A stretch of DNA of 64,000 bases from Thermoplasmatota archaeon (lineage in GTDB: Archaea > Thermoplasmatota > JAKEGO01): contig JANQNK010000006.1 of the NCBI GenBank assembly GCA_028279595.1, forward strand, positions 96,001 to 160,000. Reading direction: 5' to 3'. The stretch's first letter is position 1, and each line of letters opens with the position of its first letter. Below the pieces are notes generated by a model that was not told the origin of the DNA, made no database searches, and saw nothing but the letters and a program-made list of their open reading frames with translations. Below are positions 9,001 through 53,585 of the stretch, piece after piece. Position numbers and translations under genes: made by a program.

Positions 9001-12000
9001 ACTGGATCAACGGCACCGGCACGGTCGACTGGTACGGCATGTACACCGTCGACCAGACATCGTCGGCCACGACAGAGGAGACAGCGACAGTGACCGTCTA
9101 CGATATCGTCGGCAACTACGCAACTGCGAACTTCACGTACCAGGAGGACACTGAGGCCCCGACGTATTCAGGTGTGATGTGGGTCGAGGGCGCGAACCCC
9201 AACGCGTTCCCGCTTCCCGACTCCGACTACCTGTTCGTCGACGGCGTCGACACCCTGTGGTTCAGCGACGAGATGCCAGGCATCGAGTATGCCTCCATCT
9301 ACGCGCAGGTCGAGGACAACTTCCTCATCGAGAAGGCCGCGTACTCGGACGAGCCCAACCTGGCGGACAGCCCGTCGGACGAGTTCATGTACACTAACAG
9401 CACCTTCCTGGTCGCAAGCCGCTACGGATTCAGCGACACCAGCGACGATGGGGACGGCGAGATCACCGTGACCCTGACCGACGTCGTGGGCAACTTCGTG
9501 GAGTTCACGATGGACTACGACTGGGACCCGATCGCACCGCAGATCCACGACATGTACTGGGCGGAGAGCTCCTCCTACCTGTACATCGACGGCTCGGACA
9601 CCCTCTGGTTCGGTGACGGCATGTTCCCGAACGTAGACTTCGCTGACATGTTCGGAAACGTCTCCGACAACGTTATGCTCGACTACGCCGAGTACAGCGA
9701 GGAGCCGACCATCGCCCGCTCACCGGGTGACGGACAGGCCCCCGCGATCGACGAGATATTCATCTTCTCGTACGACCGCGAGGACATCTGGACCGAGTAC
9801 GGCTTCGACTCCAGCAGCTCCAACGGCGACAGGCACATCAACGTGACCGTCTACGACAAGGTGGGCAACTACGCCGAGGGAGCACTCTGGTTCGAGCGCG
9901 ACGTGTCGGCACCCGTGTTCGCCAACGAGACATGGATGGAGGACTCCTCCTACCTGTGGATCGACGGAGACGGCGACCTGTGGTTCGGCGACGACATGAT
10001 GATGGAGGAGACCGGAACGGTCTACGGAGAGATAACCGAGAACGCGGAGCTCTTCATGATCGAGTTCAGCAGCGAGGGCAACCTCGCGAGCTCGCCGACC
10101 GCCATAATGACCATGGGCACGACGTACACCTTCATGGAGGACTACGGATTCGACGCCAGCAGCACCATCGGCGACGGCATGGTCGTCGTGACCGCCTACG
10201 ACCAGGTGAACAACACGAACTTCATCGTACTCGACTACGGAACCGACTTCAGGGCACCCAACCTGAACAACACCGAGTGGGAGGAGAACAATGCGTTCAT
10301 GCACATCGACGGCTCCGGCACTCTCTGGTTCAGCAACGCGATGCAGGTCAGCCAGATCGCCTACATAGAGGGCGAGATCTGGGACAACCTGGCATTCGGC
10401 ATGGTGACCTTCTCGGACGAGACGGGCTCCTTCGTCGAGCATTATCTCCCGTACATGGAGGGAATGACCGGCGAGGATGAGTTCGACACGGAGTACGAGT
10501 TCAACACGACAGCGATCGACACCGACTCACCGGTGACGGTGACCCTCGCAGACGCGGTGAACAACACTGCGACCGCGACGCTCACCTACTCGCTCGACGC
10601 GACCGCCCCGATGGCGAACATAACGTCCATGATGAACTACGATGTGCTGAACGACACGCACGCCGCAGTGACGCAGGACCTCGCGGGATGGTACTGGACG
10701 ATCTCCGGAGTCGGCTTCGATGCCGGCAGCGGTATCGACACCATCGAGCTGTCCATAGACGGTGGAGCAGCGGTCACCGCCACGAACGGCGGCGGCTGGG
10801 CGACCTGGTCCTACGACTCGCTCGAGCTGAACAACTCCGGCTGGCACTCCATCGAGTGGACCGTCATCGACCGCGTAGGCAACGCGCAGATGATGACCTA
10901 CGAGGTGTACAGGCCAGCGGTCAACTCGTCCGGTGTATGGATGTGGCGTCTGGCAGACGGCGGCATCCTCAACCTGACGACGATCGCGCCGTACTTCCTG
11001 TGGATGCAGGTGGACCTGGTGCTTCCGACCGACTACATCTGGGTGGCGATCGAGCGGTTCTTCGAGAACCCGATCTCCAACGACCCGTGGAACCTGACGA
11101 ACTTCCACTTCATGACGATCGAAGTGGATGACAACGACCTGCTGGTCGGGGCGAACCTCGAGTTCTACTACACGCAGCAACAGCTCCGGAACAACAATCT
11201 GACGGAGGACGACCTGCTCGGACTCGGCTTCTTCAACGAGACGTCCGGAGAATGGGAGCTCTATCCCGACACCGGCGTGCACGACTTCGTGCCGTACAGA
11301 CGCATACCGGGACGTACCCAGATACACGAGTATCAGGGCTACCTGTGGGCCGACATGATCCCGCACTTCTCGCTGATCAGCGGCCTCGGACAGAGCTACA
11401 AGGTCGAGCTACTCGGCAACACTACCCAGACCGCTGACATCTTTGACGACGTGAACGACGAGGGTGCGGACTTCTGGGTGGAGTACACCATCGTCGTGAG
11501 CAACGAGGGAACGGAGAACGACGACTTCAGGCTGAGCGCAACAGGACCTCTCGGCTGGAAGCTCTTCCTCGACGGAGACCGCGACCCGCAGGGCTGGGAC
11601 GACCACGAGACCGACACAACCATCGAGAACCTCGGATGGGGCGAGTCCATCGAGTGGACCCTCACCGCGCACATATACGACACGGACCTGAACGTAGACT
11701 CCTGGCCTCTCAGCGGTGACACCGCCGAGCCGGGTCGGACCTACTACATAGACATCGAGGTCGAGTCGCTGACCGATCCAGGAACGTCGTACGACTCGAT
11801 GGTGATCGACGCTGTGATCCGCAGGCCTGACCTCGGAGTGAACCTCGTGACGTCCACCAATCCGGGCGCATGGATACTGACGAATGCCGAGATCGACCTG
11901 TACGCCTTCGTCCACAACTACGGCAACTGGACGACCTCCGCGAGCTACGACGGTTACATCGACCCATGGGTATGGGACGAGGACGAGTCAAGATGGCTCG

Positions 12001-12407
12001 AGGACGTCACCATCGAGGCCGCGACCACCGAGGACATAATCGTGGTCTTCGAGTACGAGTCCGACGCGACCTGGGTGCCGATCGACTACGTGGCTGTCTC
12101 GCACGAGGACATCGGTCCCGGAGACACCGTCGTGGTGGCAGCCCACACCTTCAGGGTGCCGGGCGGATTCGAGGCCGGAGACGATGTGACCATGAGGGCG
12201 AGGATCCTCTACAACGGCGACGAGTACAGGCCGGTGGACGAGTTCGACGAGGAGATCCATCCGAACATCGACGAGGCGAGCCACGAGGTCGTCGGAAGGA
12301 AGCAAGGTTCGACAGGCTTCATGCCAGGCGTCGCAGCGCTGACAATGGCCGCGATCACGATCGCAGCCGTGGTCTACCTCTACAGGAAGAGGGAAGAAGA
12401 GCTGTGA
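3..12407 (+). CDS. Giant repetitive cell-surface (glyco)protein with Ig-like repeats and C-terminal membrane anchor; 5'-truncated by the window edge
   Basis: Frame open from nt 3 (WHNGSWGSGW-M...), >4130 aa, very D/T/S-rich and K-poor, many N-x-S/T sequons. ~110-aa repeats are joined by DxTAP linkers. C-terminus is GFMPG + hydrophobic helix + RKR. Confidence 0.9.
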   Translation, partial: WHNGSWGSGWMTYSGNFSLSEWGMYIIEWYSYDELGNIDWVFDYNNQTYYVDDSAPGTTIALGTPNYYDGADYWVNDTTTIGFTIDDGTGVGLNATWYRIWYGSDPWSSWTNHTAAGDFMLGLGDGMYHIEFFSTDLIGNNESSTNFTVYVDSVAPSISISDITEQRYDFGNGTRVPSIYLYTPGTATVYYGDDMTAEQLFYINGTASDANSGFQEVTYSTLLGDTPATDTSSPWSATYGAEATDADGTITITAYDNLDQMTQVTVTVTQDTTDPTITDGDWSESSTFLWVDLTNDTTDNSIAYNTNGMTGTYIGTLALDINDDVQLDRGQYSVAVGWIGAPWQFFSGVSTTTNVQYQFNSGDTWNATISVFIYDKVNNYQGQTGVYAIYRDTFDPRVRVTSISESSIYLHSPDTSTLVFGDGMGSEQSFTINGVASDPFSGLANVSFSSYAGDSPSDTAVSPWAAVYGVDNADVAGVINITAYDNMGNTKMINVTTIRDTDAPSISSVLITDLTLGSTTYVADGDDIQVTATITDANQAYMTTSDITADLWMFGGGNGVNPDWYNPTTGEAHWNLSSVTCSVSDGLNTVWVNATDIVAHTATMGSDDITADNSNPIIAVTSITEWPGSAYLYSPDLANIYFGDDMGSEQDFWINGTVSDGGSGIKAITFSSLLGESPANQTSTPWAVMYGAESTDVGGTITITVIDNTDNTAQVTVTVTQDATNPSFDDGDWSDASSNLYVDLTDDTSDNMIYYSQLMAGTDSGTLTFAVSDNVELYELVYDTGVGDDGDDLLSGASATPTVVYGFDSADTFSSTLTMVLTDAVGNSVTDSTTWEIVLDTTAPATAITAITETSPYLWAPDLATLYFGDDMASAQSFDIDGTAVDASSGLDTVTYSTLLGDSPGADTTSPWSATYDATFTDTGGTISITATDMVGNNVVLSVTVTQDTTAPSIDDGDWSESSLYLWVNTTDDTTDNTIYYGDDMTGTEIGTLTLDLSDAIGLQNITYMWGVGHDGNETLTGTSDTISVDYDFESTDTWTGTLTITSWDMVDNVVTDVLTWDIMRDVTAPVVSNVVILDLNYTNPNWTADDRSVQVTATVTGADYMGGGMIQANLTGLGGAVDAAPDNYWFGNNTAIWYVDPTTCDPSNGNVTIDVHAWDYVYNYHMDNDTIRSDNTGPQISSVLITDITDFATDFTSDGHQMLVEVTIVDAFVDQIPVTSITADLTDLGGNVSDNPNTWLPGLGYASWAFSPSLCTPSDGIVTVWVNVTDAANNTADQANDTIRSDNSAPTISSVYIYDQTNGRDDYVKDGDDVQITATITDTWMSFMDTSMIEANLSEIGYGWHVAPDFYNTVTGMTYWNITNVNVTDATSTVTVDARDFIFNFATQQSDDIIGDVTAPTIEMVVITDTTLGLTNYSTDGDDVQITVYVNDTNQADITTSMITADLTGFSLGAAVNPDGYGTGSGMAYWNLTSVSYLAEGTVTVDVDAADPAGNAGTQASGSIIADNTAPTIGSPSITDTTISSTMFVKNGDNAMILAWINDTNMLNITADTTGLDFFGTQWDTPTWRNAVTGKTIWNITGTTCNPSDADITVTWRVYDQAMHLTTVTDTITADNTGPSIAAVYIYDQTLGRDDYAKTGDDIQVTAYVNDTWQAYITASDITADLAGLGGGLFTNPDYYDTVSGLCIWNITPATVTPGIVTVSVDALDDVGNAGAQQTDTIIGDNTAPTIQAVTITDTTLMQTNFTTDGNDIQITAYINDTYQFDITTSMITADLTGFSLGAAVNPDGYGTGSGMAYWNLTAVTCSPSDGTINVDVDAVDPAGNAGTQSSGSIVADNTAVTIEMLEATDTTQSTTLYIVNGENVAVFAYVNETNLMNVTADMTGFGGGMWDAPDFHNTGTGVAWWNITGVSLSPSDGVITVTVTAYDQVYAMTVDTDTIIADNTGPTIEAVTITNNNTGSTQFVTQGINVTVTAFINDTNQVSITTSEITADLTNLGGVLFQNPDMYNTGTGVATWYVNNIATLPFEGLVTITVDAEDFMGSTGIQASGTTTADNGPPSINWTAIEDQTLSSMTWTKDGDTMRLNVTVFDGSLSFMTTADIWADLTVWGLAANTTADTFNNVTGDAEWVFSSVASTPADGVVTTWVYCRDIGGNFANATWVNITADNTDPSISGELITDETSSRTDFITDGDDVSVYAMISDLNFLNTTADMTGFGGGMWDTPTFRNAGTGVTWWNISGISATPTDGMIYVNISAYDSVLNLVVVMETIMVDTTAPVIASVLITDTTVPHTTYVKDGDDVQVTATITDMFQSYMDTSLISADLTGFGLGAAVAPDYYDTMTGMTYWNLTSVTCTPSDGTITVAVDADDFNDNSATQMSDDIVADNTPPVITSVLITDTTISSTSWVVDGHDVQVTANILPTDNLTVTADLTELGGGAAVAPSYYDLGTGDAYWNMTSVTCTPSDGVITVTVDAADFVGHTDSDTDTITSDNTAPTLSITVGSPSFGTLPTYVTDATDFTLTAGDTGSGIATTEYYVDATPWNTYVGAFNVLTEGAHTIYYRTTDNAGWVTSGSLDIFVDLTAPSASGAWSETSIYLFVDVSGTLWFGDAMGGSAMFPVLSGTAADAGSGLASVTFSTEFGDTPTNSGTLAAWSTGGYGIDSTDTDTDSPAQVTITDNVGHTTVLDFAYAEDNTAPMIDDGDFVAGGGHLYVDTTDDTSDNTIYYGDDMTGSELGWLITAISDNIGLASMEFQTAVGHDGNHVFPTAPVGFSPWVNYSFENTDTFSGALNLSVTDVVGNNYYDATTWSIIRDTSAPTIWDGDWSESSSDLYVDTTSEFTDNTIMYGSSMTSTEYGTLTFGFEDNVQLAGATYTVAVGNDGDDTFSGTNVTETVVYGFDSTDTFTGFITVTVTDAVGNSLAVGSEWQITRDVTAPTINTGEWAGPDVGIYIDSGLDKMWFGDSMTSALRVWINGTATDTSAVERVEFTTEPNLASSPSTHWINGTGTVDWYGMYTVDQTSSATTEETATVTVYDIVGNYATANFTYQEDTEAPTYSGVMWVEGANPNAFPLPDSDYLFVDGVDTLWFSDEMPGIEYASIYAQVEDNFLIEKAAYSDEPNLADSPSDEFMYTNSTFLVASRYGFSDTSDDGDGEITVTLTDVVGNFVEFTMDYDWDPIAPQIHDMYWAESSSYLYIDGSDTLWFGDGMFPNVDFADMFGNVSDNVMLDYAEYSEEPTIARSPGDGQAPAIDEIFIFSYDREDIWTEYGFDSSSSNGDRHINVTVYDKVGNYAEGALWFERDVSAPVFANETWMEDSSYLWIDGDGDLWFGDDMMMEETGTVYGEITENAELFMIEFSSEGNLASSPTAIMTMGTTYTFMEDYGFDASSTIGDGMVVVTAYDQVNNTNFIVLDYGTDFRAPNLNNTEWEENNAFMHIDGSGTLWFSNAMQVSQIAYIEGEIWDNLAFGMVTFSDETGSFVEHYLPYMEGMTGEDEFDTEYEFNTTAIDTDSPVTVTLADAVNNTATATLTYSLDATAPMANITSMMNYDVLNDTHAAVTQDLAGWYWTISGVGFDAGSGIDTIELSIDGGAAVTATNGGGWATWSYDSLELNNSGWHSIEWTVIDRVGNAQMMTYEVYRPAVNSSGVWMWRLADGGILNLTTIAPYFLWMQVDLVLPTDYIWVAIERFFENPISNDPWNLTNFHFMTIEVDDNDLLVGANLEFYYTQQQLRNNNLTEDDLLGLGFFNETSGEWELYPDTGVHDFVPYRRIPGRTQIHEYQGYLWADMIPHFSLISGLGQSYKVELLGNTTQTADIFDDVNDEGADFWVEYTIVVSNEGTENDDFRLSATGPLGWKLFLDGDRDPQGWDDHETDTTIENLGWGESIEWTLTAHIYDTDLNVDSWPLSGDTAEPGRTYYIDIEVESLTDPGTSYDSMVIDAVIRRPDLGVNLVTSTNPGAWILTNAEIDLYAFVHNYGNWTTSASYDGYIDPWVWDEDESRWLEDVTIEAATTEDIIVVFEYESDATWVPIDYVAVSHEDIGPGDTVVVAAHTFRVPGGFEAGDDVTMRARILYNGDEYRPVDEFDEEIHPNIDEASHEVVGRKQGSTGFMPGVAALTMAAITIAAVVYLYRKREEEL
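3210..7490 (+). repeat. 13 tandem ~110-aa coding repeats (ITDxT...DGDDVQVTA...ITADLTGxGxG...PDxY...G.AYWNLT.VTC.PSDG)
   Basis: Motif recurs every ~330 nt; one more isolated copy starts near nt 1510; triplet super-periodicity of ~987 nt. Confidence 0.85.
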
Positions 12408-40388: not shown

Positions 40389-43025
40389 TCACTTCATGCT
40401 CTCGAGCTCGTCGAGTATGGGCTGGATGTGATGGGTGTCGCCCCTCTCCTTGAAGATCTTCTTCGCCTTGTTGAAGAACGTCTTCGCCTGCTTGTCCTGC
40501 CCCATGTCCCTGTGGACGCGGCCTATGAGGAATAGCTTCTCGGCTATCCTTATCGGGGCGTTCCCCTTCTCCGCAAGCTCGAGGCTCTTGTTGAGGTACT
40601 CCAATGCATCCTCGTGATTCCCCTTGCTGGCATGGACGATCCCGTAGGCCATGTTGAGGTGTCCCATGAGAATGTGGTCCATGTCCGATCCGTGGATCCT
40701 CTCGGCCTCCTGGAGCCTCTCCAGGGCGTCGTCGTGCTTCTCCATCTCCGCAAGCGCCCTTACGGAGTTCATCAATGCGAACCCGAGGAGTTCGTGGGAA
40801 CCGCTCCTGCGTCCGGATTCGACGGCCATCTCCCAGTAGTGGTGGGCCTTCTCGATGTCCCCCTTGGAGAAATGGCACTCGCCCATGAGGTCGTAGACAC
40901 GACCGAGCTTGAAGACGTCCTTTCTCCCCTCGAAGAAGTCCAGGCTGACCTTCGCCAGTTCGAGGGCCTTGTCCATGTCGCCCATCGAGATGTAGATGGA
41001 CCCCATGTCGATCAGAAGGTCGTGATACTCGATGTCATGGGTCCCTTCCACGGCGTACTGGATCGCGAGTTCGAGGAGCTCCTTGGCCTTGCCGTGCTCC
41101 CCCTTGTGGATGAACAGCCTGGCAATTGCGCCGTTGACCATGGCCAACAGCCCCTTGTCCTTGGACTGGTTCGCCATGTCGAGAGCGATCTGAAGGTTGT
41201 TGTTGGCGTCGTCGACGTTCCCGAGGCTGAGTTCGAGCAACCCGAGCTGTCTGAATGCATGCGAGCGGGCCACGAAGTTCGTCGTGGATGACGAGTTCAG
41301 CGCCTTGTCGTAGTACTCCCTGGCGTTCTCGTGATCGGTCTCGAGGAAGTACATGTCCCCCTGGAGAATGTATATCTTGTAGAACTGGTCGGTCGGGATA
41401 TTGCCCTCGAGGTCCGTCAGTATGCTCTTGACCTCCGCGATGAGGCCGCGGTTCAGGGACTCGTTCCCGACCTTTCCGAGGATCTCGCTGGCGTCGTCGT
41501 AGTACTCGCCCTTGAGCAGATACCTTATCCCCTTCAGCGAGTCGAAGACCGTCTCCTTGCCGATGAAGTAGTCCGCTGCGTTCTTGCAGTGTTCCTTTAT
41601 CTCGGCCTCGGAGAGCCTAGAGTAGGTCACCTCGCGAAGGAGGTTCTGGAGATAGATCATGCCCGACGGCAGGTCCTGGATCAGGTGGAGGTCGATGAGG
41701 CGGTCGAGCGCCTCCATTGGTGGGTCGATGTAGAGCAGAGCGTCGATCTCGTTGGGATATGTGAGGACCGACGCGTAGTTGAGCAGTTTCCTCTCCTCCT
41801 CCTCGAGGCCGGAAAGCAGTTCGTCCTGGACGAACCGGTAAAGGTCGCTGGGCTTTTTCACGTCGTCGGGGTTCCTTATCAGTTCGAGGGACAGGGGATG
41901 CCCGCCCGTGATCTTGTAAAGGATATCGATGTTCGGTCCGGAGAACCCGCGCGAGCTGAGCATCTCCTCGGTGCCCTCGAAGCTCAGTCCCGACAGCTTC
42001 AGCTCCCCCACGTGGGAACGTATGTTGACGTCCCTCCTGTCGTAGAACTCGGGGGTTGTCCTGGATACGACGACCATCTTGAGGTCCTTGCCCGAAAGGG
42101 CCTCGAACATCTGTCCGAAGAAGCCGGCAAGCTCATCGTTCGCCTTCTCGTAGTTGTCGAAGACGAAGAGCGATGGCACGTCGCCGAGGTTCTCGCCGAT
42201 GAGTTCGATCGCCTCGTTGGTCTGGAACGATGACCTCGAGATCATCTTCTTGAGCTCCCTTGAAGCGTTTAGCGAGAAGAACTCGGCAAGCCTCGAAAGG
42301 ATGCTCCTGATGGTGTCCCATTCCGTGACGTTGCACCACAGTACGCTGTAGTCGCTGGTGAACTCGTCGATTACCTTGGCCAATAGAGTGGACTTCCCGA
42401 TCCCGGTTATCCCCGTGATGACGAGGACCTTCCTCTCGGATATGATCTTCCTCACGGACTCGAGTTCGCGGTCTCGTCCGATGAAGTTGCGTGGCTTTGG
42501 GGCATCGCTCAGCATGTGGACGCGCGTTGACATCTCCTTGTCCTCGGAGATGAACTTCTCGAGAGCCTCCATCTGAACGACATCCTTCCCGTCGTTCGCT
42601 ACCACAAGGACGGTCAATGGGGAGACACCGCCTCCCAGTCTCTCTACGAGGGTGAAAATGGGGACGTCCTCGACCTCGTCGCCGGTCCTTATCTTGATCT
42701 CCACGGCTTCGAGCTTCTCCTTGATGTCCTTCGCCTCGTCGATACCCTTCATGGTGAGGAAATAGATGTTGACCCGTCTCATGTGGCCTTCGACCATTCC
42801 CGTACGGACCTGAATGAGTTCGTCGTTGACGAGTCCCTTGAGCGAACGGGGGACGTGGTTCCAACGGATGCCCACGGCGTCCGCTATGCCCTTCTGGGAC
42901 AGGTCGTGGGGAAGAACTCCGAATATCTCGGTCTGCGACTCGTCTGAGACGTACCTTTCCGCAGGAAACTCGGAAAGATGGAGCAGTATCTTCTCCTTTA
43001 CCGTAAGCAAGCTCTTCTCCGTCAT
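40389..43025 (-). CDS. wHTH - STAND-class NTPase - TPR signalling/regulatory protein
   Basis: N-terminal wHTH (SQKGIADAVGI..NHV.R.LK.L), FIGRDREL, Walker A GITGIGKS, Walker B FVFDNYE, GGHPL.L, C-terminal TPRs. Confidence 0.85.
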   Translation of the reverse strand: MTEKSLLTVKEKILLHLSEFPAERYVSDESQTEIFGVLPHDLSQKGIADAVGIRWNHVPRSLKGLVNDELIQVRTGMVEGHMRRVNIYFLTMKGIDEAKDIKEKLEAVEIKIRTGDEVEDVPIFTLVERLGGGVSPLTVLVVANDGKDVVQMEALEKFISEDKEMSTRVHMLSDAPKPRNFIGRDRELESVRKIISERKVLVITGITGIGKSTLLAKVIDEFTSDYSVLWCNVTEWDTIRSILSRLAEFFSLNASRELKKMISRSSFQTNEAIELIGENLGDVPSLFVFDNYEKANDELAGFFGQMFEALSGKDLKMVVVSRTTPEFYDRRDVNIRSHVGELKLSGLSFEGTEEMLSSRGFSGPNIDILYKITGGHPLSLELIRNPDDVKKPSDLYRFVQDELLSGLEEEERKLLNYASVLTYPNEIDALLYIDPPMEALDRLIDLHLIQDLPSGMIYLQNLLREVTYSRLSEAEIKEHCKNAADYFIGKETVFDSLKGIRYLLKGEYYDDASEILGKVGNESLNRGLIAEVKSILTDLEGNIPTDQFYKIYILQGDMYFLETDHENAREYYDKALNSSSTTNFVARSHAFRQLGLLELSLGNVDDANNNLQIALDMANQSKDKGLLAMVNGAIARLFIHKGEHGKAKELLELAIQYAVEGTHDIEYHDLLIDMGSIYISMGDMDKALELAKVSLDFFEGRKDVFKLGRVYDLMGECHFSKGDIEKAHHYWEMAVESGRRSGSHELLGFALMNSVRALAEMEKHDDALERLQEAERIHGSDMDHILMGHLNMAYGIVHASKGNHEDALEYLNKSLELAEKGNAPIRIAEKLFLIGRVHRDMGQDKQAKTFFNKAKKIFKERGDTHHIQPILDELESMK

Positions 43026-43143
43026 GCTGGTACATCCATCGCGGTCCTAGGTTAGATAATTCGGATAGGACATAAAACACTTTGCCATACGTGTCTACCT
43101 GTAATGTTTAAAATTCAACGCTCACAGGGTATTCGGACCTGGA

Positions 43144-43881
43144 TCAATCAAGGGGCCTGTACTTGACGGTCGGTGTACCGTCTGTCTTCTCATTGCCGTC
43201 GAGGGGAATGACCACGGCCTCCTGGGCCTGTTCCTCGAACGGGACCTGCTCTGCCTGTATGACGTTCTGGTCCGCTCCCGGGGGATGTACGACCGGGCCG
43301 CCGGCCTGATATTCTTCCGCCGGACGGTCCTCCCTCGGTGGTTCGTTGCCCGGTTGCGATTCCATGAATGTGGGGGAATGGCCTTGCTGCTGGGGCTGCG
43401 GGGAAACAACTGCCGGCTGCGGCTGCTGGACCGCCTGCTGGGGCGGTTGCGGTGCGACCTGCTGTTGTGGCGCCGGCGGTCGGGGCTGCTGGGTCGGTGC
43501 AGGCTGAACCGGCTGGGGTGGTTGTGGGGTCCCCCTCCTAAGTTCGAGCGCCTCCGCCTTCAATCCCTCGACCTGTATCTTCAATTCGTCGATGTTGTCG
43601 TGGAGATTGGCGATGATCTCGACGTCCCGGACGTGCCTGTCCTTGAGCCGGGCGATCTCCTCGTCACGCTCCCTGATCTGCTTGGTGATGACCTCCTGTT
43701 GGGCGCCCGCCTTGGCAGCATCGATCCCGCCTCCAGTCCTGAGCCTCTCTATCTCGGCCTCCTTGGCTGCCAGTATGTCCTTGAGCTTCGCCAGTTGAGA
43801 ATGGATATCAGGACGCTTCGGCGGTCCAGCGCTCTTCTCGGTGAGCGAGCGCATCTCCTCTTCTTCAACGATCCTGATCAT
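43144..43881 (-). CDS. Coiled-coil protein with Pro/Gln-rich tail
   Basis: Start MIRIVEEEEM after GGTGA; heptad region, then PQQP-rich linker. Confidence 0.75.
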   Translation of the reverse strand: MIRIVEEEEMRSLTEKSAGPPKRPDIHSQLAKLKDILAAKEAEIERLRTGGGIDAAKAGAQQEVITKQIRERDEEIARLKDRHVRDVEIIANLHDNIDELKIQVEGLKAEALELRRGTPQPPQPVQPAPTQQPRPPAPQQQVAPQPPQQAVQQPQPAVVSPQPQQQGHSPTFMESQPGNEPPREDRPAEEYQAGGPVVHPPGADQNVIQAEQVPFEEQAQEAVVIPLDGNEKTDGTPTVKYRPLD

Positions 43882-43894
43882 GTCCTGATCACCG

Positions 43895-44713
43895 TCAGAC
43901 CTTTCCGGCGCCCCTGCAGTTGGGACATACCTCTTGGACGATGCTTCCGTCCTTCTTCCTAACGCCGATGACACCCTCTCCTCCGCAGACGGGGCAGATG
44001 GCCTGTTCCCCGATGTCCTCGGGTATGGGTATCGTCTCGGGTACCTCGGCGACCTCCGCCGGGATCGGAGCCTCCTCCTGCGGTTCTGGGGCGGCTTCCG
44101 CGCCCTTTACCGTTTCCACCGTCTGGGCCTTCTCATCCTGTTGCTTGGCACCCAGGATAGATCCTGATCCTTCGGGCTTTCCACCGAGGAGTCTACCGCG
44201 CGACTCGGGTTGTGCCGGTGCAGCCTCCTCGACCGGAGCGAAGACCGGGGTCGGTCCCGCCTGGGGCTTCTTCATCGTGTCGCTCATCTGATGGAGCTCT
44301 CCGGTAAGATCGGATATCCGCTGTTCGAGCTCCTCCTTGTAAGCTGTGGTCTTGTCGAGGATCTCCTTGTCGAGCTCGATCTTCTTGTCCCTCTCCGTGA
44401 TCAGTGCTTTGAGGTCCTGTATCTCGCCCTTGAGCGTCTCCAGGATGCCAGGGTCGGTCTCTGCGGCCGGTGGGCCGTCCTTGGGAGCTGGAGCCTTGGC
44501 CTTCTCCTGCTCGAGCGCGGCCTTCGTCGCGTCGAGCTCCTCCTGGAGCTTGGTGTTCTCGTCCTTCATCGTCTTGAGCTCCTGGATCGCCTTGTTGAGC
44601 TTCTCCTTGAGGTTCTCTACGATGTCGGTGATCTGCTTCTTGAGCTTGAGTTGCTCAGACGTCTTCTCCTGCTTCGACCGCTCCATCTCGTCCTCGGTGA
44701 TCATCCTGACCAT
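43895..44713 (-). CDS. Coiled-coil protein with C-terminal DnaJ-type zinc hairpin
   Basis: MVRMITEDE...heptads...CPVCGGEG-x15-CPNCRGAG-KV*. Confidence 0.8.
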   Translation of the reverse strand: MVRMITEDEMERSKQEKTSEQLKLKKQITDIVENLKEKLNKAIQELKTMKDENTKLQEELDATKAALEQEKAKAPAPKDGPPAAETDPGILETLKGEIQDLKALITERDKKIELDKEILDKTTAYKEELEQRISDLTGELHQMSDTMKKPQAGPTPVFAPVEEAAPAQPESRGRLLGGKPEGSGSILGAKQQDEKAQTVETVKGAEAAPEPQEEAPIPAEVAEVPETIPIPEDIGEQAICPVCGGEGVIGVRKKDGSIVQEVCPNCRGAGKV

Positions 44714-44726
44714 TCCGACCCTCCAT

Positions 44727-45521
44727 TCATGTTCTCCCAGTTCCACCGCACCGCGGACATGAGACCTCCTTCTCGGCGTCCCCGTCCTGCACGATCACCT
44801 TCTTTCTCCCCTTGCAGAGGTCGCAGCGTTTCGACCTTCCAGCCAGGGGAGGCGCTAGGTTCAGCACTATTGTGTCGTTAGTGCCACTTTCCTTATTTAA
44901 ACTTTCCAACTGCTGCTTGGCCTTCCTGAGCTCTGCTACGATAGCGCTGGACTTCGTCTTGAGCTCATCGTATCTCGCAGTGTGCTTCTGACCATCCTTC
45001 CTGAGCTTCTCGTTCTCGACAGTCAGGTGCTTGATCCTCTCGATCGCAGCGGGGTCGGGCCCCGATTGGGTTGCCGTCGATGGCGACGCCCTCAACGACT
45101 CGACCTCCGCGAGCAGGTCCCGTCTGATCTGCTCGTACTGGGACTTGATGCCCTCGAACGAACGTATCTGCTGGTCCCTGTCGGTTATCATACGCTTGAG
45201 GATGTCGATCTCCTTCTCTTTCTCGGCGACGCTCTTCGTGATCGCCTGTATCCTCTTCTGCATCTCCCCTACCTTCTGCCTGAAGGATTCGGGTATCTCG
45301 CTCTGCGCCTTGGCCTGACGGATCCTCGTGACCGCCCATTTGAGCTCGTTCTGAAGCGTCTCCTTGGCCGCCGCGCTCTCCTCGAGGTCGGTCCTGAGCG
45401 AATTGATCTGATTGGTCAATGTATCGATGGTCCGAAGATGGATCTCCTCCTCCGCCTTGCCCTTGGCAATGAGCTGCTTGAGACTCTCGACCTGGGCTTT
45501 AAGCGGATCGGACCCTGTCAA
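44727..45521 (-). CDS. Coiled-coil protein with C-terminal DnaJ-type zinc hairpin
   Basis: Heptads...CDLCKGRK-x14-CPRCGGTG-RT*; TTGA overlap with the upstream gene. Confidence 0.8.
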   Translation of the reverse strand: MTGSDPLKAQVESLKQLIAKGKAEEEIHLRTIDTLTNQINSLRTDLEESAAAKETLQNELKWAVTRIRQAKAQSEIPESFRQKVGEMQKRIQAITKSVAEKEKEIDILKRMITDRDQQIRSFEGIKSQYEQIRRDLLAEVESLRASPSTATQSGPDPAAIERIKHLTVENEKLRKDGQKHTARYDELKTKSSAIVAELRKAKQQLESLNKESGTNDTIVLNLAPPLAGRSKRCDLCKGRKKVIVQDGDAEKEVSCPRCGGTGRT

Positions 45522-46975
45522 ACTATACCAGCTCCGTCACACCTAGGACACGTCTCCTCCCTGACGTGGCCGTGCCTGTCCTTGACCCCGACCTTCCCGA
45601 GGCCACCGCATACCGGACAGACCTTGCCCAATGTGTCGCTCACCGGCACCTCGGCCGGCGGAGGGGGCGGTGCGGCCGCCTTGGCCGGAGGTGCCGCCTG
45701 TGCCTCTGCCGGCGCTGCGGGAGGCGGTGGTGCCGCGGCCTTGGTCTCCAGCCTCTCGTTGAGCCTCTGTACGGCGGTCTCGAGGGCAGTGTTCCTTCCG
45801 TTAGCCTCGTCGAGCTCCTTCCTGGTCTTCTCGAGCTCGGCGTTGAGTCCGTCCCTCTCGGCCATGATCATCTTGACGTCGCCGCTCTCCGCGGCGATCT
45901 TCGCGTTCTCTGCCTCCAGGTCCGCGATCCTCTTGTTGAGGCCCTCCCGTTCGGTCTTCCAGGAGGCTTCCTTCTCGGTGAGGGTAGCCTTGACGGCCTC
46001 CATCTGCTCCGACTCTCCGGCCTTGTCGCCCTGGAGCTTGACGTATTCCTGCTTGACGGCCGCGATGGTGTCCTTGACCTCCGTGAGGTCCTTCTTCAGC
46101 TTGGCGTTCTCCTCCTTGAGCTTGACGACCTCAGCGGAACCGGCCTTCTCGAGTTCAGCGATCCTCATGTCCCGCATCTGCACCTCCTTGTTGAGGCGCT
46201 CGATCTCGCGGGTAAGGCCCTGTACCTTGTCCGTGGAACCCGAGCTCTGCTTGACGATCTTGGCGTTCTCGGCCGTGAGCCTCTCGACCTCCCGGGTCAG
46301 GGCGTCCGCCTTCTCCTTGACTGCGGCCGAATCCTTCTGGACCTTCTCGTTCTCGGCGGCGGATATCTCCGCGGCCTCCTTCATGGATGCCAGCGAGGCC
46401 TCGGCGGTCTCGATCCTCTTCGTGAGCTCCGCCCTCTCCTTCTCGACGACCCCGATCGCGGTCTTCATCTCCTCGATCTCGTCGTTCTTCGTCCTCAGGG
46501 AGGTCGTGACCTTCTCCAGCCTCTCCTTGTCAGCGGTCCTGTCCTTGTCGGCCTTCTCGAGGGCCTTCCTGGCGGCCTCGAGACCGGCCAGCGCCTTCTT
46601 CGCTTCCTCGAGCTCGGCAGCTGCCTTTCCTGCCTTCTCGAGGTCCTTCTGGAGCTGATCGTTGGTGGCCTTGAGCCCCTTCAGGGTCTCCTTGGCCGCA
46701 CCGACCGTCTTCTTCATCTCCTCCCTCTCCTTGTCGAGGGAGTCCACCTGTTTCGTAAGGTCTGCGATCCGCTTCTCGGAGGCTGCGGTATCCTTCTTGG
46801 CCGCATCGGCGTCGGCGGTCATCTGTTCCACGACCACTTTTAGGCGCGATATCTCACGCGCCCTTTCCTCGATCTTCCTCTCTGATTCGGATATCCTCTC
46901 CTTCAGTTGGAGGTTCTCAGACTTCTTCTCCTCGTCGAAAAGGTCCTTCTCGTCCTCGGATATCACCTTGATCAT
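45518..46975 (-). CDS. Long coiled-coil protein with C-terminal DnaJ-type zinc hairpin
   Basis: MIKVISEDE...~400 aa of heptads, Pro/Ala linker, CPVCGGLG-x15-CPRCDGAG-IV*. Confidence 0.82.
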   Translation of the reverse strand: MIKVISEDEKDLFDEEKKSENLQLKERISESERKIEERAREISRLKVVVEQMTADADAAKKDTAASEKRIADLTKQVDSLDKEREEMKKTVGAAKETLKGLKATNDQLQKDLEKAGKAAAELEEAKKALAGLEAARKALEKADKDRTADKERLEKVTTSLRTKNDEIEEMKTAIGVVEKERAELTKRIETAEASLASMKEAAEISAAENEKVQKDSAAVKEKADALTREVERLTAENAKIVKQSSGSTDKVQGLTREIERLNKEVQMRDMRIAELEKAGSAEVVKLKEENAKLKKDLTEVKDTIAAVKQEYVKLQGDKAGESEQMEAVKATLTEKEASWKTEREGLNKRIADLEAENAKIAAESGDVKMIMAERDGLNAELEKTRKELDEANGRNTALETAVQRLNERLETKAAAPPPPAAPAEAQAAPPAKAAAPPPPPAEVPVSDTLGKVCPVCGGLGKVGVKDRHGHVREETCPRCDGAGIV

Positions 46976-48123
46976 ATCTTACCCGCTCCTTTGCATCTCG
47001 GACACATCTGTTCGTTCAGTTTTCCGCGTTTGCCCCTCACCATCACGCGTCCCTTGCCCGAGCAAACCGGACAATCCTTCTTCCCCTTCTTCGAGCGCTT
47101 TCCACCCTTCTTCTTGACGGGCTTCCTGGGGGAACTATCCACCTTTGGAGGTCCCGGAGGTTGTACGTCGGGTTCCTCGGGCTCTTCTTCCTCGGCACCC
47201 TCGAGTATCCCCTTGACGTTGACCTCGTTGTGACACCATGGACAGATGGCCTTTTGAACCTTCCTGTCCACGATGAACGTACCGTGGCAGTAGGGGCACT
47301 CCACCTCGGTATCGCTCCTCGTCCTGCGTTCTGGATTGAGAGTGAACTCCACGGTCCTGGACGCATACGGCGGTATGTTCACATACGCCTCCGACGGCAC
47401 CGGAATGAACCCTTCCGGGGAGAATGGTTCTATGTGCAACGTCTCGAGGGACCGTTCCGACTCGTTCCTTATCTTGATCCGATAGACCAGGCCCTCACCC
47501 TTCTCGGTCAGGACCGTCGATATCGAGGCGTCCCTGCCCGGGACGAACTCCTCGGCGGTGTACGCATCGGTGTTCATCGGATTGAGCTCGAATATCCTCG
47601 CCTCTTCGCCGAAGGGCTTGAGGCTGATGACCTCGCTCTGCGGGGTCGGGACGAATATCGAGTTGGATGTGTCCGGAATGATGTTGATCCGGTTCAGGGG
47701 CTGCCCGAGGTTGTTTCGAACGAGGACCTTGTAGAGGATCCTGTTCTCGACCCGGGCGAAGACCGTCTTGATAGTGAGCTCGCGTCCGGGCTTCGGCTTG
47801 ACCATGGTCGCTGCCACGGCGCGTTCCGCCAGGGAGATGCACTCCTCGAACTGGTTCTCCTTGAGGGCGCGCTTGGCCTTCGTCAACAGGTCCTTCGCGC
47901 TGTTGACATCGATGCGTGCGTCCTGTGCCTTCAGGATCGAGCGTTCGGCGAATTCGACGGCACCCTTGGCGCTGTGCGCCATGCTCAGCTGTTCACGGAC
48001 CATGTTCTCGGCCTTCTCGGAGAGTCCCCGTGCCCTTTTCGGCTTTTCCTGGTCAAGGGCCAGTCTCGCCTTAGCGAGGACCTCCTCAGCCTCCGAGGTG
48101 TCGATATCGATCCTTTCGTCCAT
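46972..48123 (-). CDS. Helical + two beta-sandwich domains + zinc ribbon + C-terminal DnaJ-type zinc hairpin
   Basis: Duplicated Y[KR]...RN.....L..[IL].I.P...F.P.P...F.LNP units; CPYC..CPWC; CPVCSGKG-x15-CPRCKGAG-KI*. Confidence 0.78.
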   Translation of the reverse strand: MDERIDIDTSEAEEVLAKARLALDQEKPKRARGLSEKAENMVREQLSMAHSAKGAVEFAERSILKAQDARIDVNSAKDLLTKAKRALKENQFEECISLAERAVAATMVKPKPGRELTIKTVFARVENRILYKVLVRNNLGQPLNRINIIPDTSNSIFVPTPQSEVISLKPFGEEARIFELNPMNTDAYTAEEFVPGRDASISTVLTEKGEGLVYRIKIRNESERSLETLHIEPFSPEGFIPVPSEAYVNIPPYASRTVEFTLNPERRTRSDTEVECPYCHGTFIVDRKVQKAICPWCHNEVNVKGILEGAEEEEPEEPDVQPPGPPKVDSSPRKPVKKKGGKRSKKGKKDCPVCSGKGRVMVRGKRGKLNEQMCPRCKGAGKI

Positions 48124-48124
48124 G

Positions 48125-51100
48125 TTACTCCTCCCCCTCTTTTACCGATTCTATGAACGCCTTGGCATGCATGTAGGCGCCCTTTGCCGTCTCCAGCATG
48201 GAGACGATGATGTATACGGCTATAAGACCGAGTATGAGTGCGATGAGCGGATAGATGAAGGTCGGGAACGGCAGCAGGTCAGGAGTGAGGAAAAGGCCTT
48301 CGAGCATGGTGCCGATCGATCTCCCCGAGGATAGGCTCAGGAAGAATATGCCGAACATCAGGCCGCATATGGCGAGCGTGCTGATGTATGACTTCGTTCT
48401 GATCCCGGTGATGATGGTGTAGAGCGGGACTATCATCACGAGCATTATGTACGCGAGCGGAAGGGCAGCCGCGTCGATCGCCGCGCTCTCGACCGGCAGG
48501 AGGACGAACAAGGAGATCGCCGTCGTCACGACCAGACCCTTGATGAGGTGCTCGTTCCGCCGCTGTTTGAGGCTCACGCGCTTCGCGTTCGCCCTTAGCA
48601 TCGCGAAACCACCGAGAAGTATGATCGGCAGTGCGATGAGGACGATCGGGTTGGGGCGTTTGCTGACCTTTATCTCCGTAGAAACGACGTTGTTCCTCCG
48701 CCGTCCCGGGTCACTCCCCTCATAGCCTTCGCTGGCCGCCTTGATCGTCAACGTGTGTCGCTCCGAACGGTTGAACCAGTCGAGCTCCGGGATCTCGATC
48801 TCGATTGCGAGGGTCCTCTCCCCCTCCATGGGAAGGTCGATCTGGACCTCGTGGATGAGGTCTCCGTCCCAGTAGACCTCGATCGGCAGGTTCGAGAGGG
48901 TGTCGATGACCGGGTCCCCCGTCTCCCTGCCGGTGGACCTAACGGTGAACGTTACGGTGAGCTCGTCCCCCTCCTGTGCGATGTCATCGATGTCCACGTC
49001 CGAGATGGATATGTCTGGCGAGAGCGTGATTATCAGGAAGTTGAGCTCCTCGGGCGTCGGCAGTGCGTCGACCCAGACGTTCACGGTGAAGTCGAGTTCG
49101 GAGAAATGGGGTATCGAGGGTGCGGAATGTATCGTCGCATAGATGATCCGGTCCTGACCGGGAGCCAGCAGGAAACTGGAGTTGTCGAGCTCGATCTCCC
49201 AACCGGAATAGAAGGTCGTGGAGTTGAGCGTGAACGTCCGCTGTACGGGGAACTCGTTCCTGATGAGGATGCCGTAGTCGATCTCGGAATCCGGGAATAT
49301 GTAGACGAACGGAGGTCCGTAGGGCATGACGAACGAGGTCTCGACCTCGATGCGTACGTCGTCGTATCCCGGACCCTCGACCACCGAACCGGACACGTCT
49401 ACGTAGTTGATCGGGTCGTTGAGGGAGTTGGACGGCGGCCTGATCGTAACGTAGACCGTAGTGCTCTCGTCGAAATCGAGGGTGACCGATGGTCTGTCGA
49501 GCCACACGGTCCAATCGCCGGTCTGAGAGACGTCGAGTGTGACGTTCTCTCGGCCGTTGCCGGTGTTTATTACGTAGACAGGGACGATCAGAGGTTCGTT
49601 GGGTATTACCTTCCACACGTCGCTCCCGCCCCAGATGTCCAGGTCCCGTGTCTGGAGGTCGACACCCGTGACGAGGTCGACGATGACCTTCCCCCATTCG
49701 GAGTCGGACACCTTGCTGTCGTGCTTCGATGTGAGGTTCAGGATGATGGTATCGCTGCTGTCCGCGATGAGTCCGTACGGGATGTACACCCTGATCTGGA
49801 GTATTCGGGTCTCTCCGGGATCGACGAGGTCCAGGGCCTCGGGATTGATCATGTCGGTCTCCCAATCTGAGGTCGACACGATGTCCTCGTTGTAATTGTC
49901 TATCCCGTTCCCAGTATTGTTGAATGTGAAGTTGAGGACAGTCTCCCCTCCAGGGGGCCCCCTCGCCGTCATCACAGGGCGTATCTCGACCCCTCCGACC
50001 TGGGTCAGCGATATCGTGCATGTGGAAAAGTCGCTCTTGGTCGGGTCCGCAGTGGAGTTGACCTCGACGACGATGATGTAGACCTCGTCCTCGAGCGCGT
50101 CCTCCGGTATCTGTACCCTCAGGGTGATCGTCGTTGTCAGACCTGCTAGCACCGAACCGGTGATATCCCCCGGTAACAGGGAGATCGAAAGGCTCTGATT
50201 GTTCACTGTCCTCAGGCCGAAGGAGTCCTCGCCATTGCCCGTGTTGGTCACGATGAGCTCCATATCGACAGTGTCGCCCGGTTCCGCGGTGGTAGCGTTC
50301 TCCTCGGGTTCGATGGTAACGGAATAGCCCTGAAGGACGTTTATGTACGAGAAGGCGCTATCGCTCGTGGTCCCATCACCACAGGTGGCGGTGAGGACAA
50401 GGGTCTCGTTCGTTCCGACGGGAGTTCCTGGATTGATGGTGACGTTCACGATGATATCCACATTCTCGTCGTATTCGAGGTTCACCAGCGGCTGTGAATC
50501 GACGACGAAGGTCAGATTGGTCGATCCGTCGATCGAGAACGAGTCCATGTCGTTCCCCTGGTTGCGGATGTTGAACGTGAACTGGACAGCTTCCATCGGT
50601 TCCCCGGACTGGATAACTGGATCGATCGCGGTGACCTCGACACCGTAGACCTGGGGGATCATCGCCACGAGGTCGACCACCCGGTACTTCGAGCTGTCGG
50701 CGTCGGACTCGGCCCGGACAGTGATGTGGGCCCGCCTGTTGTCCGGCCTGTCCCTCGATTCCATCGTAATCGTTATTATCTCAGATTCGCCATTATCAAG
50801 TGTAATGCCGTCCGGAGGTGCTCCATTCTCAACATTTACCAGCCAGTTTGGGGGCGCTGTTGAGTTGGTAATGTAGAACGTGTCAGTACTCTCGTAGTTC
50901 GCCACGTTGGTCACGTTGACGAGGAATACCGCGGTCTCTCCTATCCCGATCTCGACGGGAGATTCGCTGATGAGCCTGATGTCGACGTCATTGGATTCGG
51001 AGACGTCGATGGAGGCCTGGGATGACGCGTCGACGTAGATGTCATAGTCGGATGTCACCTGGATACGCAGCGTTGCGGTGGTGTCGGCGGCTATGACGTT

Positions 51101-51736
51101 GTTCCACTCGGATCGCGGCACGATGACGTCCACGCTGACGGAGATGGAGTCACCCATGTCGAGGTCCTCTATCTTGTCGTCGAACGTGACGTTCCAGACC
51201 CTGTACTGGGTGTCGATGCAAAGGGCCTCGACTGTGAAGTTGTCCATGGCATTCCCGGTGTTCCACACGGTGAAGTTGATGGTGATGGTCTCGCCGGGAT
51301 CGCCGAAGAACGTGCCTGGAGTGTTGATAGCTACTCCGGCCACGGGAAAGACCCTGGTCGTGGCCTGGGCCGTGTCGGTGGCGCTCGACGCCTGGGATAT
51401 AGCCTGGAGGGTGACGTAGTCGACGGTGTTGGCCTGTGTCCCTGCCGGGATGGAGACGATGACCTCGATATCTTCCTCGATCTGGCCGGATGATAGTGTG
51501 ATGTTCGATGGCTGGACCACAGTCCAACCCCGGGAGGAGTTCGCCACGAGATCGTAGGAATCGGTTTGGCTACCAGTGTTCTCCACATCGAAGTGATGGG
51601 TGATGTTCGCGCCTGGAAATCCCCATCCGCCACCTCCATCCGGTCCCCGTACATCGACGTCGTACTGCGCCGCCCCGGGACCGCAGAGGAACAGTGCGAA
51701 GAAAACGACGCACAAGAACAACCAATGCAGCCTCAT
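48125..51736 (-). CDS. Surface protein with ~8 NEW3/COG1470-like Ig repeats, a CARDB-like domain and a 5-TM C-terminal membrane domain
   Basis: Signal peptide; repeated V.NTGN..D.F.L...W; five hydrophobic segments in the last ~170 aa. Confidence 0.82.
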
Positions 51737-51935
51737 ACCTTCACCTTTTCGCGATACGCCTGGACTCCAAGTTATTCAATTCTGTCTATATATAGTTTGT
51801 TTGGTGGTATTTTCCGCGTTCCGTGACAAATCGAGAATCACCAGCGTCCGGTGGTTTCCGTGGTTTATTGGTCACGTTCGTATCCCAATCACTATCTTTT
51901 TATCCGGCCGGGGCCTTCTGCGGAACGGTGATCCA

Positions 51936-53585
51936 ATGCACGAGATAAGGGCACCCAGGGGAACGGAGCTGACATGTAGGGGATGGGCCCAGGAAGCGGC
52001 TATGAGGATGCTGATGAACAACCTCGACCCGGAGGTGGCCAGGGACCCCGAGAACCTGATCGTCTACGGGGGCATCGGAAAGGCCGCCAGGAACTGGAAG
52101 GCGTTCGAGGACATAGTGTCTACCCTGAGGACGCTGGAGGACGATGAGACCCTTCTCGTACAGAGCGGCAAACCCGTTGCCGTGTTCAGGACCAACACCT
52201 GGTCGCCGCGCGTTCTTATAGTGAATTCCATGCTCGTACCTAAATGGGCGACCTGGGAGCACTTCAACGAACTGGATTCAAAAGGACTGATGATGTACGG
52301 CCAGATGACCGCTGGCTCCTGGATATACATCGGGACACAGGGGATCCTCCAAGGGACCTACGAGACACTAGGTTCGCTGGCGACCGAGCACTTCGGAGGT
52401 TCGCTAAAGGGAAGGATAACACTAACTGCAGGCCTCGGCGAGATGGGCGGGGCTCAGCCTCTGGCCGTGACCATGAACGAGGGTGTCTGCATAGCTGTCG
52501 ATGTTGACAGGAGGATGATCGACAGGCGTTTGGACACTGCATACATGGACACCTGGACCGCCGATCCCGGGGAGGCTCTCGACCTTGCAAGGGACGCCGC
52601 TTCCGAAGGGAAGGCGTTGTCCATAGGCGTGTTCGGGAACGCGGCCGAGGTACTCCCGGCCTACGTGGACCAGGGATTCGTACCGGACGTGGTGACCGAC
52701 CAGACGTCGGCGCACGATCCACTCAACGGTTACGTTCCGGTTGGATATTCCGTCGATGATGCGGACGTCCTCCGGAAGGACGATCCAGACGGCTATCTGG
52801 AGCTATCGACTTCTAGCATCGCCGACCACGTCCGTGCGATGCTTGCATTCAAGGAGAAGGGTTCGATAACCTTCGATTACGGCAACAACATCAGACAGGT
52901 CGCATTTGACAAGGGTGTCGAGGATGCATTCTCGTATCCCGGTTTCGTTCCAGCCTACATCAGGCCTCTCTTCTGCCTCGGCAAGGGACCCTTCAGATGG
53001 GTTGCGCTCTCCGGTGACCCCGAGGACATCAAGGTAACCGACGAGGCCATACTTGAGCTGTTTCCGGAGGACGTCGGACTCGAGCGGTGGATCAAGAAGG
53101 CATCCGAGAAGGTCCACTTTCAGGGTCTGCCATCGAGGATCTGCTGGCTAGGATACGGTGAAAGACATCGGGCCGGCCTTGAGTTCAACAAACTTGTGAG
53201 GGAGGGGATAGTCTCGGCGCCGATCGTGATCGGACGCGACCACCTGGATTGTGGATCCGTCGCTTCCCCGAACAGGGAGACCGAGGCGATGAGGGACGGA
53301 TCGGATGCAGTGGCTGACTGGCCGATCCTGAACGGACTGCTCAGCACGGCCGGCGGTGCGACCTGGGTGAGCGTCCACCATGGCGGCGGCGTCGGCATGG
53401 GATATTCCATCCATGCCGGTCTGGTGATCATTGCTGACGGCACAGATCTATCTCGTGAAAAGCTCGAGAGGGTGCTAACGAACGATCCGGGGATGGGCGT
53501 CGTCAGGCACGCTGACGCCGGCTACGAGGCCGCCCTCGACTGCGCCCGCGAGACCGGGGTGGTCCTGCCTTCCGAGGACCTCTAA
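51936..53585 (+). CDS. hutU: Urocanate hydratase
   Basis: [66 protein letters not shown]. Confidence 0.97.

Follow-up and report, generated by a model that had tools for sequence, protein, structure and literature searches.

A 64,000-nucleotide (nt) stretch of a genome that its Atlas cluster and gene content place in the Thermoplasmatota (the window; the genome carrying it is called G000 here) holds six genes, G1 to G6, at 43144-51736 on the minus strand. Together they make up a conserved, enzyme-free unit of an outside immunoglobulin (Ig)-like stalk, a multi-pass membrane foot, a soluble adaptor and coiled-coil rods. Orthologues of the first two genes head the archaellum (arl) operon in nine families outside the class to which G000 belongs, and the reading that we prefer, and hold with about even confidence, is that G1-G2 are an archaellum accessory of part of the Thermoplasmatota, to which G3-G6 were added as a class-specific cytoplasmic extension that anchors or positions the motors. 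Its parts differ in strength; the pair was very probably associated with the archaellum ancestrally, probably still is so in this class, and G3-G6 are, to a similar degree, likely to be a physical part of the archaellum-associated unit. An earlier note, made from the DNA alone, had proposed an outside-in adhesion or shape apparatus; the enzyme-free unit of stalk, foot, adaptor and rods stands, and an archaellum accessory with a class-specific extension is its most likely identity, rather than a free-standing adhesion or shape apparatus.

G1 and G2 at the archaellum operon of other Thermoplasmatota

Among 401 genomes of the phylum that were scanned, three of which make up the class (G000, G001 and G002), full-length G2 was found in 34, and all 34 carriers have ArlD/E, compared to a base rate of 133/401. 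The membrane tail of G1 gave strong, single-copy matches in 35/401 genomes and adjoins G2 wherever a contig shows both, except in G022, where two large membrane-anchored proteins (1178 and 1364 amino acids (aa); L091:398-7970) precede G2 and only the first matches the G1 tail. Outside the class, arlB/arlCDE lie directly downstream of G2 in 30 of 31 genomes from seven families (the remaining contig ends after G2), and two JGI contigs likewise have arl genes directly after G2. Weak matches to the G2 profile in families f6 and f24 proved to be the gene just before arlB in 5/5 genomes and, where the contig reaches, the gene before this G2 homologue encodes a 1570-1660-aa protein with a five-helix tail. 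Profile comparison supported homology for both partners (hhalign probability 98.7, E 2e-16, for G2 against the f6/f24 arl-upstream gene; 90.5%, E 1.3e-6, for the G1 tail against its counterpart). These two families are presumably Marine Group II, going by the patchy archaellin distribution of that group (PMC6336850). Within f6, G2 homologues were present in 30/33 archaellin-positive and 0/68 archaellin-negative genomes, and G2 and archaellin share the same 5 of 13 genera; these counts are inflated by physical linkage and kinship. G1-G2 have orthologues that lie in arl loci and are co-retained with them, and G3-G6 do not.

No G1-G2 was found at the arl loci of families f14 and f28. Large Lys/Glu-rich proteins (492-1588 aa) stand beside arl in families without the pair (L158:5716-14199; L157:10154-12127; L153:10160-11638), and there may be several independent scaffold solutions across families. 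The genes in the ArlF/ArlG position of the sister lineages of G000's class are much enlarged, with PKD domains and lengths of up to 1202 aa (L023:2934-7085; L095:10625-11608; L094:13280-16888), hinting at stators that are remodelled where G1-G2 are present.

The unit within the class and its separation from arl

All six genes were found in the same order in G002, from another family of the class, and on a JGI contig, and because of this shared order the locus is taken to be more than a chance arrangement. Two more contigs carry G1-G3 or G1-G4, and in G001 the contig breaks off after G1-G2 and the opening codons of G3. All of G1-G6 is covered (42800-52034), with zero differences, by a Logan contig of 68.9 kb, although its run may be the source of the window DNA. 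G3-G6, and the zinc (Zn) hairpin in which most of them end, were found only in the three-genome class and in close metagenome contigs, and the hairpin profile gave strong matches only in the three class genomes of the phylum collection.

The arl genes of the class lie elsewhere. In G000, arlB-CDE-F-G-H-I-J is on contig C4 and the window on contig C11, and arlB is preceded by an unrelated gene, for a beta-CASP nuclease; G001 and G002 have kept their arl operons, also away from G1-G2. In a tree of G2 (26 rows, Ig-only homologues excluded, rooted on f6/f24) the five rod-bearing rows formed one group (100/97); arl-adjacent rows share the supported group (96/100) in which it falls and also make up the deeper part of the tree. 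As the rod-bearing rows nest among arl-adjacent ones, the simplest reading is that adjacency to arl is ancestral and that separation, together with gain of the hairpin and the rods, happened once. The co-occurrence of the genes in related genomes that the earlier note had looked for was thus seen within the class, and G1-G2 match an archaellum-linked pair, which in part is the kind of match to a known system that it had taken to speak against a new apparatus.

Neither CheW nor CheF was found in G000, which is 86% complete, and so a role in chemotaxis relay is without support. A second ArlI/TadA-like ATPase (G000 C19:161129-162535) points to another type IV filament system.

The surface protein G1 and the adaptor G2

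In G1 a single hydrophobic signal lies at the N-terminus and five transmembrane (TM) segments lie towards the C-terminus, at 1031, 1064, 1091, 1118 and 1160, and in its ectodomain nine repeats of ~110 residues are visible in sequence, with a net charge of -110 and 21 N-x-S/T sequons. It scores above the curated cut-off of the NCBIfam family choice-of-anchor T (NF041740; 159.6 bits compared to 70), as do its orthologues (95.7 and 167.9), with no such match in the f6 homologue; this membership gives G1 a name and no function. The tail was modelled by AlphaFold2 (AF2) as a five-helix bundle (pLDDT 86, pTM 0.77), and from the basic loops after TM1 and TM3 the positive-inside rule would place the last helix in the cytoplasm. 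Foldseek with this foot gave a best E of 0.11 and a VIA search a best Z of 10.1 (root-mean-square deviation 3.5, 112 aligned, against a designed bundle), a level usual for helical bundles, and no match to the tail was obtained in Atlas, where a blank does not prove absence.

G2 has neither a signal peptide nor a TM segment, and its AF2 fold consists of a helical unit of ~100 residues, two beta-sandwiches, a Zn ribbon, a disordered linker and a Zn hairpin. Giant proteins of the phylum contain this helical unit in many copies (at least 40 in some proteins of the collection), and no Pfam family was found above cut-off for it; in G000, two proteins have 5 and 3 copies (C10:57168-61040 and C7:72857-75088). 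Fold searches with G2 and the G1 tail returned generic Ig and helical-bundle matches only. Ig-only homologues of G2, without the helical repeat and without a G1 partner, lie away from arl in families f5, f20, f23 and f30 and share a conserved acidic tail end (L029:8630-9712, L033:8961-10112, L086:7602-8744, L089:7292-8413), and 11/12 genomes that have them carry ArlD/E. The G2 of G001 (L022:3-1202) has a frameshift near codon 281, its 3' half being in another frame, which is either an assembly error or a real break.

Complex prediction for the G1 tail with the G2 core gave 0.37 compared to 0.00 for the best control, with at least 92% of contacts agreeing between runs and a partner pLDDT of at least 75. 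The mark used was reached by 58/80 solved complexes and 2/110 mismatched pairs and, at 0.60 or below, by 7/80 solved complexes and both mismatches. A G1-tail/G2 contact is weakly supported by this and, since it was likely beforehand from the near-constant adjacency of the two genes, the prediction raises its likelihood only slightly.

The 1203-aa secreted multi-Ig protein with a five-TM C-terminus which had been described from the DNA alone is therefore confirmed by the signal, the roughly nine Ig repeats and the five TM segments, as is the soluble helical/beta-sandwich/Zn-ribbon protein G2, with a Zn hairpin to be added to it. For the proposed link of the multi-pass domain to G2, a contact is weakly predicted. 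Naming G1 an adhesin is unsupported, as only generic Ig families, and no lectin or adhesin-specific domain, were found in it with Pfam and NCBIfam.

Rods, zinc hairpins and head motifs

Compared to shuffled sequences (~1.0 ± 0.2-0.4), the heptad signal is strong in G3 (2.37), G4 (2.29) and G5 (3.13) and weak in G6 (1.64 compared to 1.04 ± 0.46). The earlier note had all four as coiled coils with Pro/Ala/Gln linkers, which suits G3-G5 well for the coils and G6 only weakly, while G4 is almost without a linker. Coiled coils rise 0.148 nm per residue, and rods of ~58, 30, 19 and 13 nm would be expected for G3 to G6. The rod proteins vary in length from genome to genome (485/264/272/245 residues in G000 compared to about 681/310/418/265 in G002), ruling out a role as a fixed ruler.

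G2-G5 all end in one two-motif, DnaJ-type Zn hairpin, which G6 lacks, so the zinc-hairpin label of the earlier note is narrowed to these four proteins. Each hairpin has two CxxCxGxG-type motifs and scores 17.6-23.4 bits against PF00684, for which the cut-off is 32.7; in E. coli DnaJ its counterpart is the zinc site at the centre of the protein (1exk residues 27-61, E 3.3e-8), and there is a weak match to anti-TRAP. P0073 was left out of the hairpin alignment because its paired cysteines are those of the Zn ribbon and not of a terminal hairpin. The G2 hairpin is kept in all class orthologues, at 44-92% identity compared to 18-57% for the linker.

A related N-terminal head motif begins G3, G5 and G6 but not G4. 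The heads of G3 and G5 are identical at 14/22 positions in G002; a head profile built without G000 sequences had G3, and not G5 or G6, among its top matches, suggesting that the likeness of the G5 and G6 heads is looser than it looks. Identity of G3 to its orthologues is 64-100% in the head, 65-100% in the hairpin and 28-71% in the coil, and the rod ends appear usually to be more conserved than the coils. Every head-bearing gene follows a hairpin-bearing gene, an order which fits a head-to-tail code and equally tandem duplication.

The top non-self match of the head motif in the genome was the C-terminal tail of ArlCDE (11.7 bits, E 0.31), yet this likeness failed its controls (shuffles reached the score in 2/8 runs, and the best rank in the reciprocal search was 438) and was rejected. 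Wider relatives of G3 were not found by word search or among genome contigs, two weak coil-only matches coming from metagenomes, and the Atlas matches for G5 were all below 0.9; in neither case does a blank prove absence.

Proposed mechanism and alternatives

In the mechanism that we propose, a signal peptide would export G1, and its acidic, probably glycosylated Ig stalk would provide a static footing within the surface protein coat, with the five-helix foot spanning the membrane and the C-terminal helix inside. G2 would dock on this foot, its Ig domains either linking to the cytoplasmic motor side through a putative contact with Arl proteins or self-assembling under the membrane. In the class, G1-G2 would have left the arl operon, G2 would have gained the Zn hairpin, and the four rods would have arisen from a head-coil-hairpin gene by tandem duplication. 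These may bind by their conserved ends into a submembrane scaffold, analogous to the polar cap, that anchors or positions the motors. The contact with Arl proteins, the binding among G2-G6, the formation of a polymer and a polar location are all what we infer here. A more specific form, possible though rather doubtful, is a trans-envelope scaffold of G1-G6 with the rods chained head-to-tail, Zn hairpin to N-terminal head; such a scaffold could, just as tentatively, be a membrane-anchored cytoskeleton derived from an archaellum anchor, either a polar-cap-like structure or a new shape or attachment apparatus.

Several observations weigh against an archaellum function. The unit is unlinked from the arl operon in 3/3 class genomes, where a functional link would be a matter of inheritance. 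One Logan contig (L098:571-5632) has G1-G2 with neither arl nor rods beside them, a second separation. Many archaellated families lack G1-G2 beside arl and have no strong profile match, so the pair is not universally required. Physical linkage can account for the co-loss in f6, and related genomes are not independent. Oxyplasma, moreover, swims without a polar cap (PMC12448462).

The alternative that fares best, although we think it unlikely, is a repurposed, motility-independent scaffold, in line with the earlier note, in which G1-G2 anchor a coiled-coil cytoskeleton for shape, attachment or envelope spacing. A single branch of the G2 tree carries both the separation from arl and the gain of G3-G6, and long coiled coils bearing terminal modules are a typical scaffold design; the unrelated nuclease upstream of arlB in G000 and the Logan contig on which G1-G2 stand alone would suit such a change of use too. 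Set against this, the arl genes are kept in all three class genomes, no archaellin-negative f6 genome has a G2 homologue, even the arl-unlinked Ig-only homologues sit almost wholly in ArlD/E-positive genomes, and G1 is without a lectin or adhesin-specific domain.

An archaellum-linked unit in which G3-G6 are structural also has to be weighed against G3-G6 as assembly factors or regulators, whose DnaJ-type hairpins would act as holdases or clips while G1-G2 or the motor assemble, in the way that DnaJ-like zinc-finger proteins of plants serve large complexes. The hairpin's match to the DnaJ zinc site and, more weakly, to anti-TRAP is in keeping with this, and DnaJ-like zinc-finger proteins such as PSA2 regulate the assembly of complexes (PMC7662858). 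We nevertheless find it improbable, as the proteins lack a J domain, carry only two of the four motifs and are mostly coil, G6 has no hairpin at all, and four translationally coupled paralogues suit subunits more than catalysts. The weakest alternative, and a very improbable one, is of two unrelated modules on one promoter, G3-G6 having been inserted behind G1-G2 and the G2 hairpin being a by-product of tandem duplication; G1-G2 do occur without rods in every other family, and a duplication unit running across a gene junction would copy hairpin and head with no need of a binding code, but the G2 hairpin is better kept than its linker in all class orthologues, the order G1-G6 has held across two families, and the ATGA overlap of G2 and G3 recurs in G001 and metagenome contigs (the spacing is looser in G002).

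Gene calls and neighbouring genes

The calls on the window give six tightly packed minus-strand open reading frames (ORFs; Table 1), with junction spacings from G1 to G6 of 1, -4, -4, 13 and 13 nt, an ATGA overlap at G2/G3, a TTGA overlap at G3/G4, and Shine-Dalgarno-like GGAGGG and GGTGAT in the two 13-nt gaps. The coupling reported in the earlier note was thus reproduced junction by junction, and its statement that no enzyme motif is visible was borne out, no enzyme family being found among the Pfam and NCBIfam matches of G1-G6. There was no Rfam match either, and a scan for promoters and terminators with a sigma-70 model, which is unsuited to archaea, stayed at chance level. No RNA holder was listed for the locus, from which nothing follows about expression. 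The STAND-type gene behind G6 is probably outside the unit; contig C4 carries two paralogues of it, and its place beside G6 is shared by the JGI relative and not by G002.

Table 1. Genes of the six-gene unit and two other genes of the window
Gene	Position	Strand	Product	Features
G1	48125..51736	-	1203 aa	Signal peptide, ~9 Ig-like repeats, five-helix membrane foot (~1030-1183), predicted cytoplasmic C-terminal helix
G2	46972..48123	-	383 aa, predicted cytoplasmic adaptor	Helical repeat 10-104, two Ig-like domains 116-264, Zn ribbon 276-297, disordered linker, DnaJ-type Zn hairpin 351-383 (AF2 and family searches)
G3	45518..46975	-	485 aa	Conserved head motif, ~395-residue coiled coil, Pro/Ala linker, Zn hairpin
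G4	44727..45521	-	264 aa, TTG start	~200-residue coiled coil and Zn hairpin, no head motif
G5	43895..44713	-	272 aa	Head motif, ~130-residue coiled coil, Pro/Ala/Glu linker, Zn hairpin
G6	43144..43881	-	245 aa	Short head motif, short weak coil, Pro/Gln-rich disordered tail, no hairpin
STAND-type gene	40389-43025	-	878 aa	Winged-helix / STAND-type ATPase / TPR, same strand, 118 nt after G6
Giant surface protein	33-12407	+	ORF of at least 4124 aa	One C-terminal membrane anchor

Comparison with known systems

No description of the G1-G6 architecture was found in the literature searched, coverage of which is incomplete. Long heptad coiled coils are shared with SMC/Rad50, crescentin and intermediate filament (IF)-like rods. 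Unlike SMC/Rad50, the rods have no ATPase heads or hinge, and a terminal paired-CxxC hairpin takes the place of a central hook; matches to SMC/Rad50/SbcC were to the coil only (e.g. 51.9 compared to 567 and 60.3 compared to 300 bits), with no ATPase family match, and Rod_CreS (17.3 compared to 100) and Filament (22.7 compared to 40; bits against curated cut-off) fell short as well. With the DnaJ cysteine-rich domain (PF00684, 1exk) and anti-TRAP the hairpin shares two CxxCxGxG-type motifs round a beta-hairpin and one predicted zinc site. Unlike DnaJ it is half a domain, below the Pfam cut-off and sited at the end of a coiled coil, and no PF00226-type J domain was found in G2-G6; proteins with 3-4 CxxCxGxG motifs are present elsewhere in the genome. 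Judged by these family matches, G1-G6 are not SMC, DnaJ or crescentin.

Closer in proposed function are ArlX/ArlCDE and the euryarchaeal polar cap, which also are lineage-specific membrane or cytoplasmic scaffolds proposed to anchor or organise motors. The polar cap has been proposed as the cytoplasmic anchor since ArlCDE has no membrane segment, and is described as a sheet, probably proteinaceous, with its connection to the motor still unsettled (PMC8978795); none has been observed in G000's class or in Oxyplasma. Unlike ArlCDE, of which the genome holds its own, G1-G6 have no sequence match to these proteins (phmmer against 11 ArlCDE proteins gave ~4 bits at best), and no archaellin, FlaC, FlaD/E, T2SSE or T2SSF family was found in them, so that on sequence grounds they are not known Arl subunits (ArlB, C/D/E, F, G, H, I, J).

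Large multi-Ig surface proteins tied to arl are also known from arCOG05057, the S-layer (surface layer)-like proteins of Methanococcales, with a similar gene in Thermococcales, and such genes in arl loci have been proposed to fit the machine into the envelope (PMC13705601). G1 differs from them in its five-helix foot, its obligate cytoplasmic partner and, in G000, its place outside the arl locus. A static layer is required by ArlF/G, and their way of working in the absence of an S-layer is an open question in Thermoplasmatales (PMC12448462); G1-G2 are a candidate anchor for part of the Thermoplasmatota, probably including Marine Group II.

The nearest known relatives are genes of the putative motility operon of Marine Group II (Tully 2019, PMC6336850, Fig. 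4). The f6/f24 pair before arlB, presumably from that group, is homologous to the G1 tail and G2, in the same order and tightly coupled; the 2019 study noted the genes only as unannotated orthologues and gave no function. What is new here is the link of the locus to this arl-upstream pair, the relocation, and a four-rod, Zn-hairpin extension known from one small class of three genomes. Compared to the f6/f24 pair, G1-G2 are detached from arl, G1 is shorter (1203 compared to ~1570-1660 aa), G2 carries two zinc modules and four rods follow. The locus is a natural experiment in which a candidate anchor pair, now outside the motor operon, acquired four soluble rods and a shared zinc clip, and G2-G6 are small and soluble, which makes their binding and polymer formation testable without culture.

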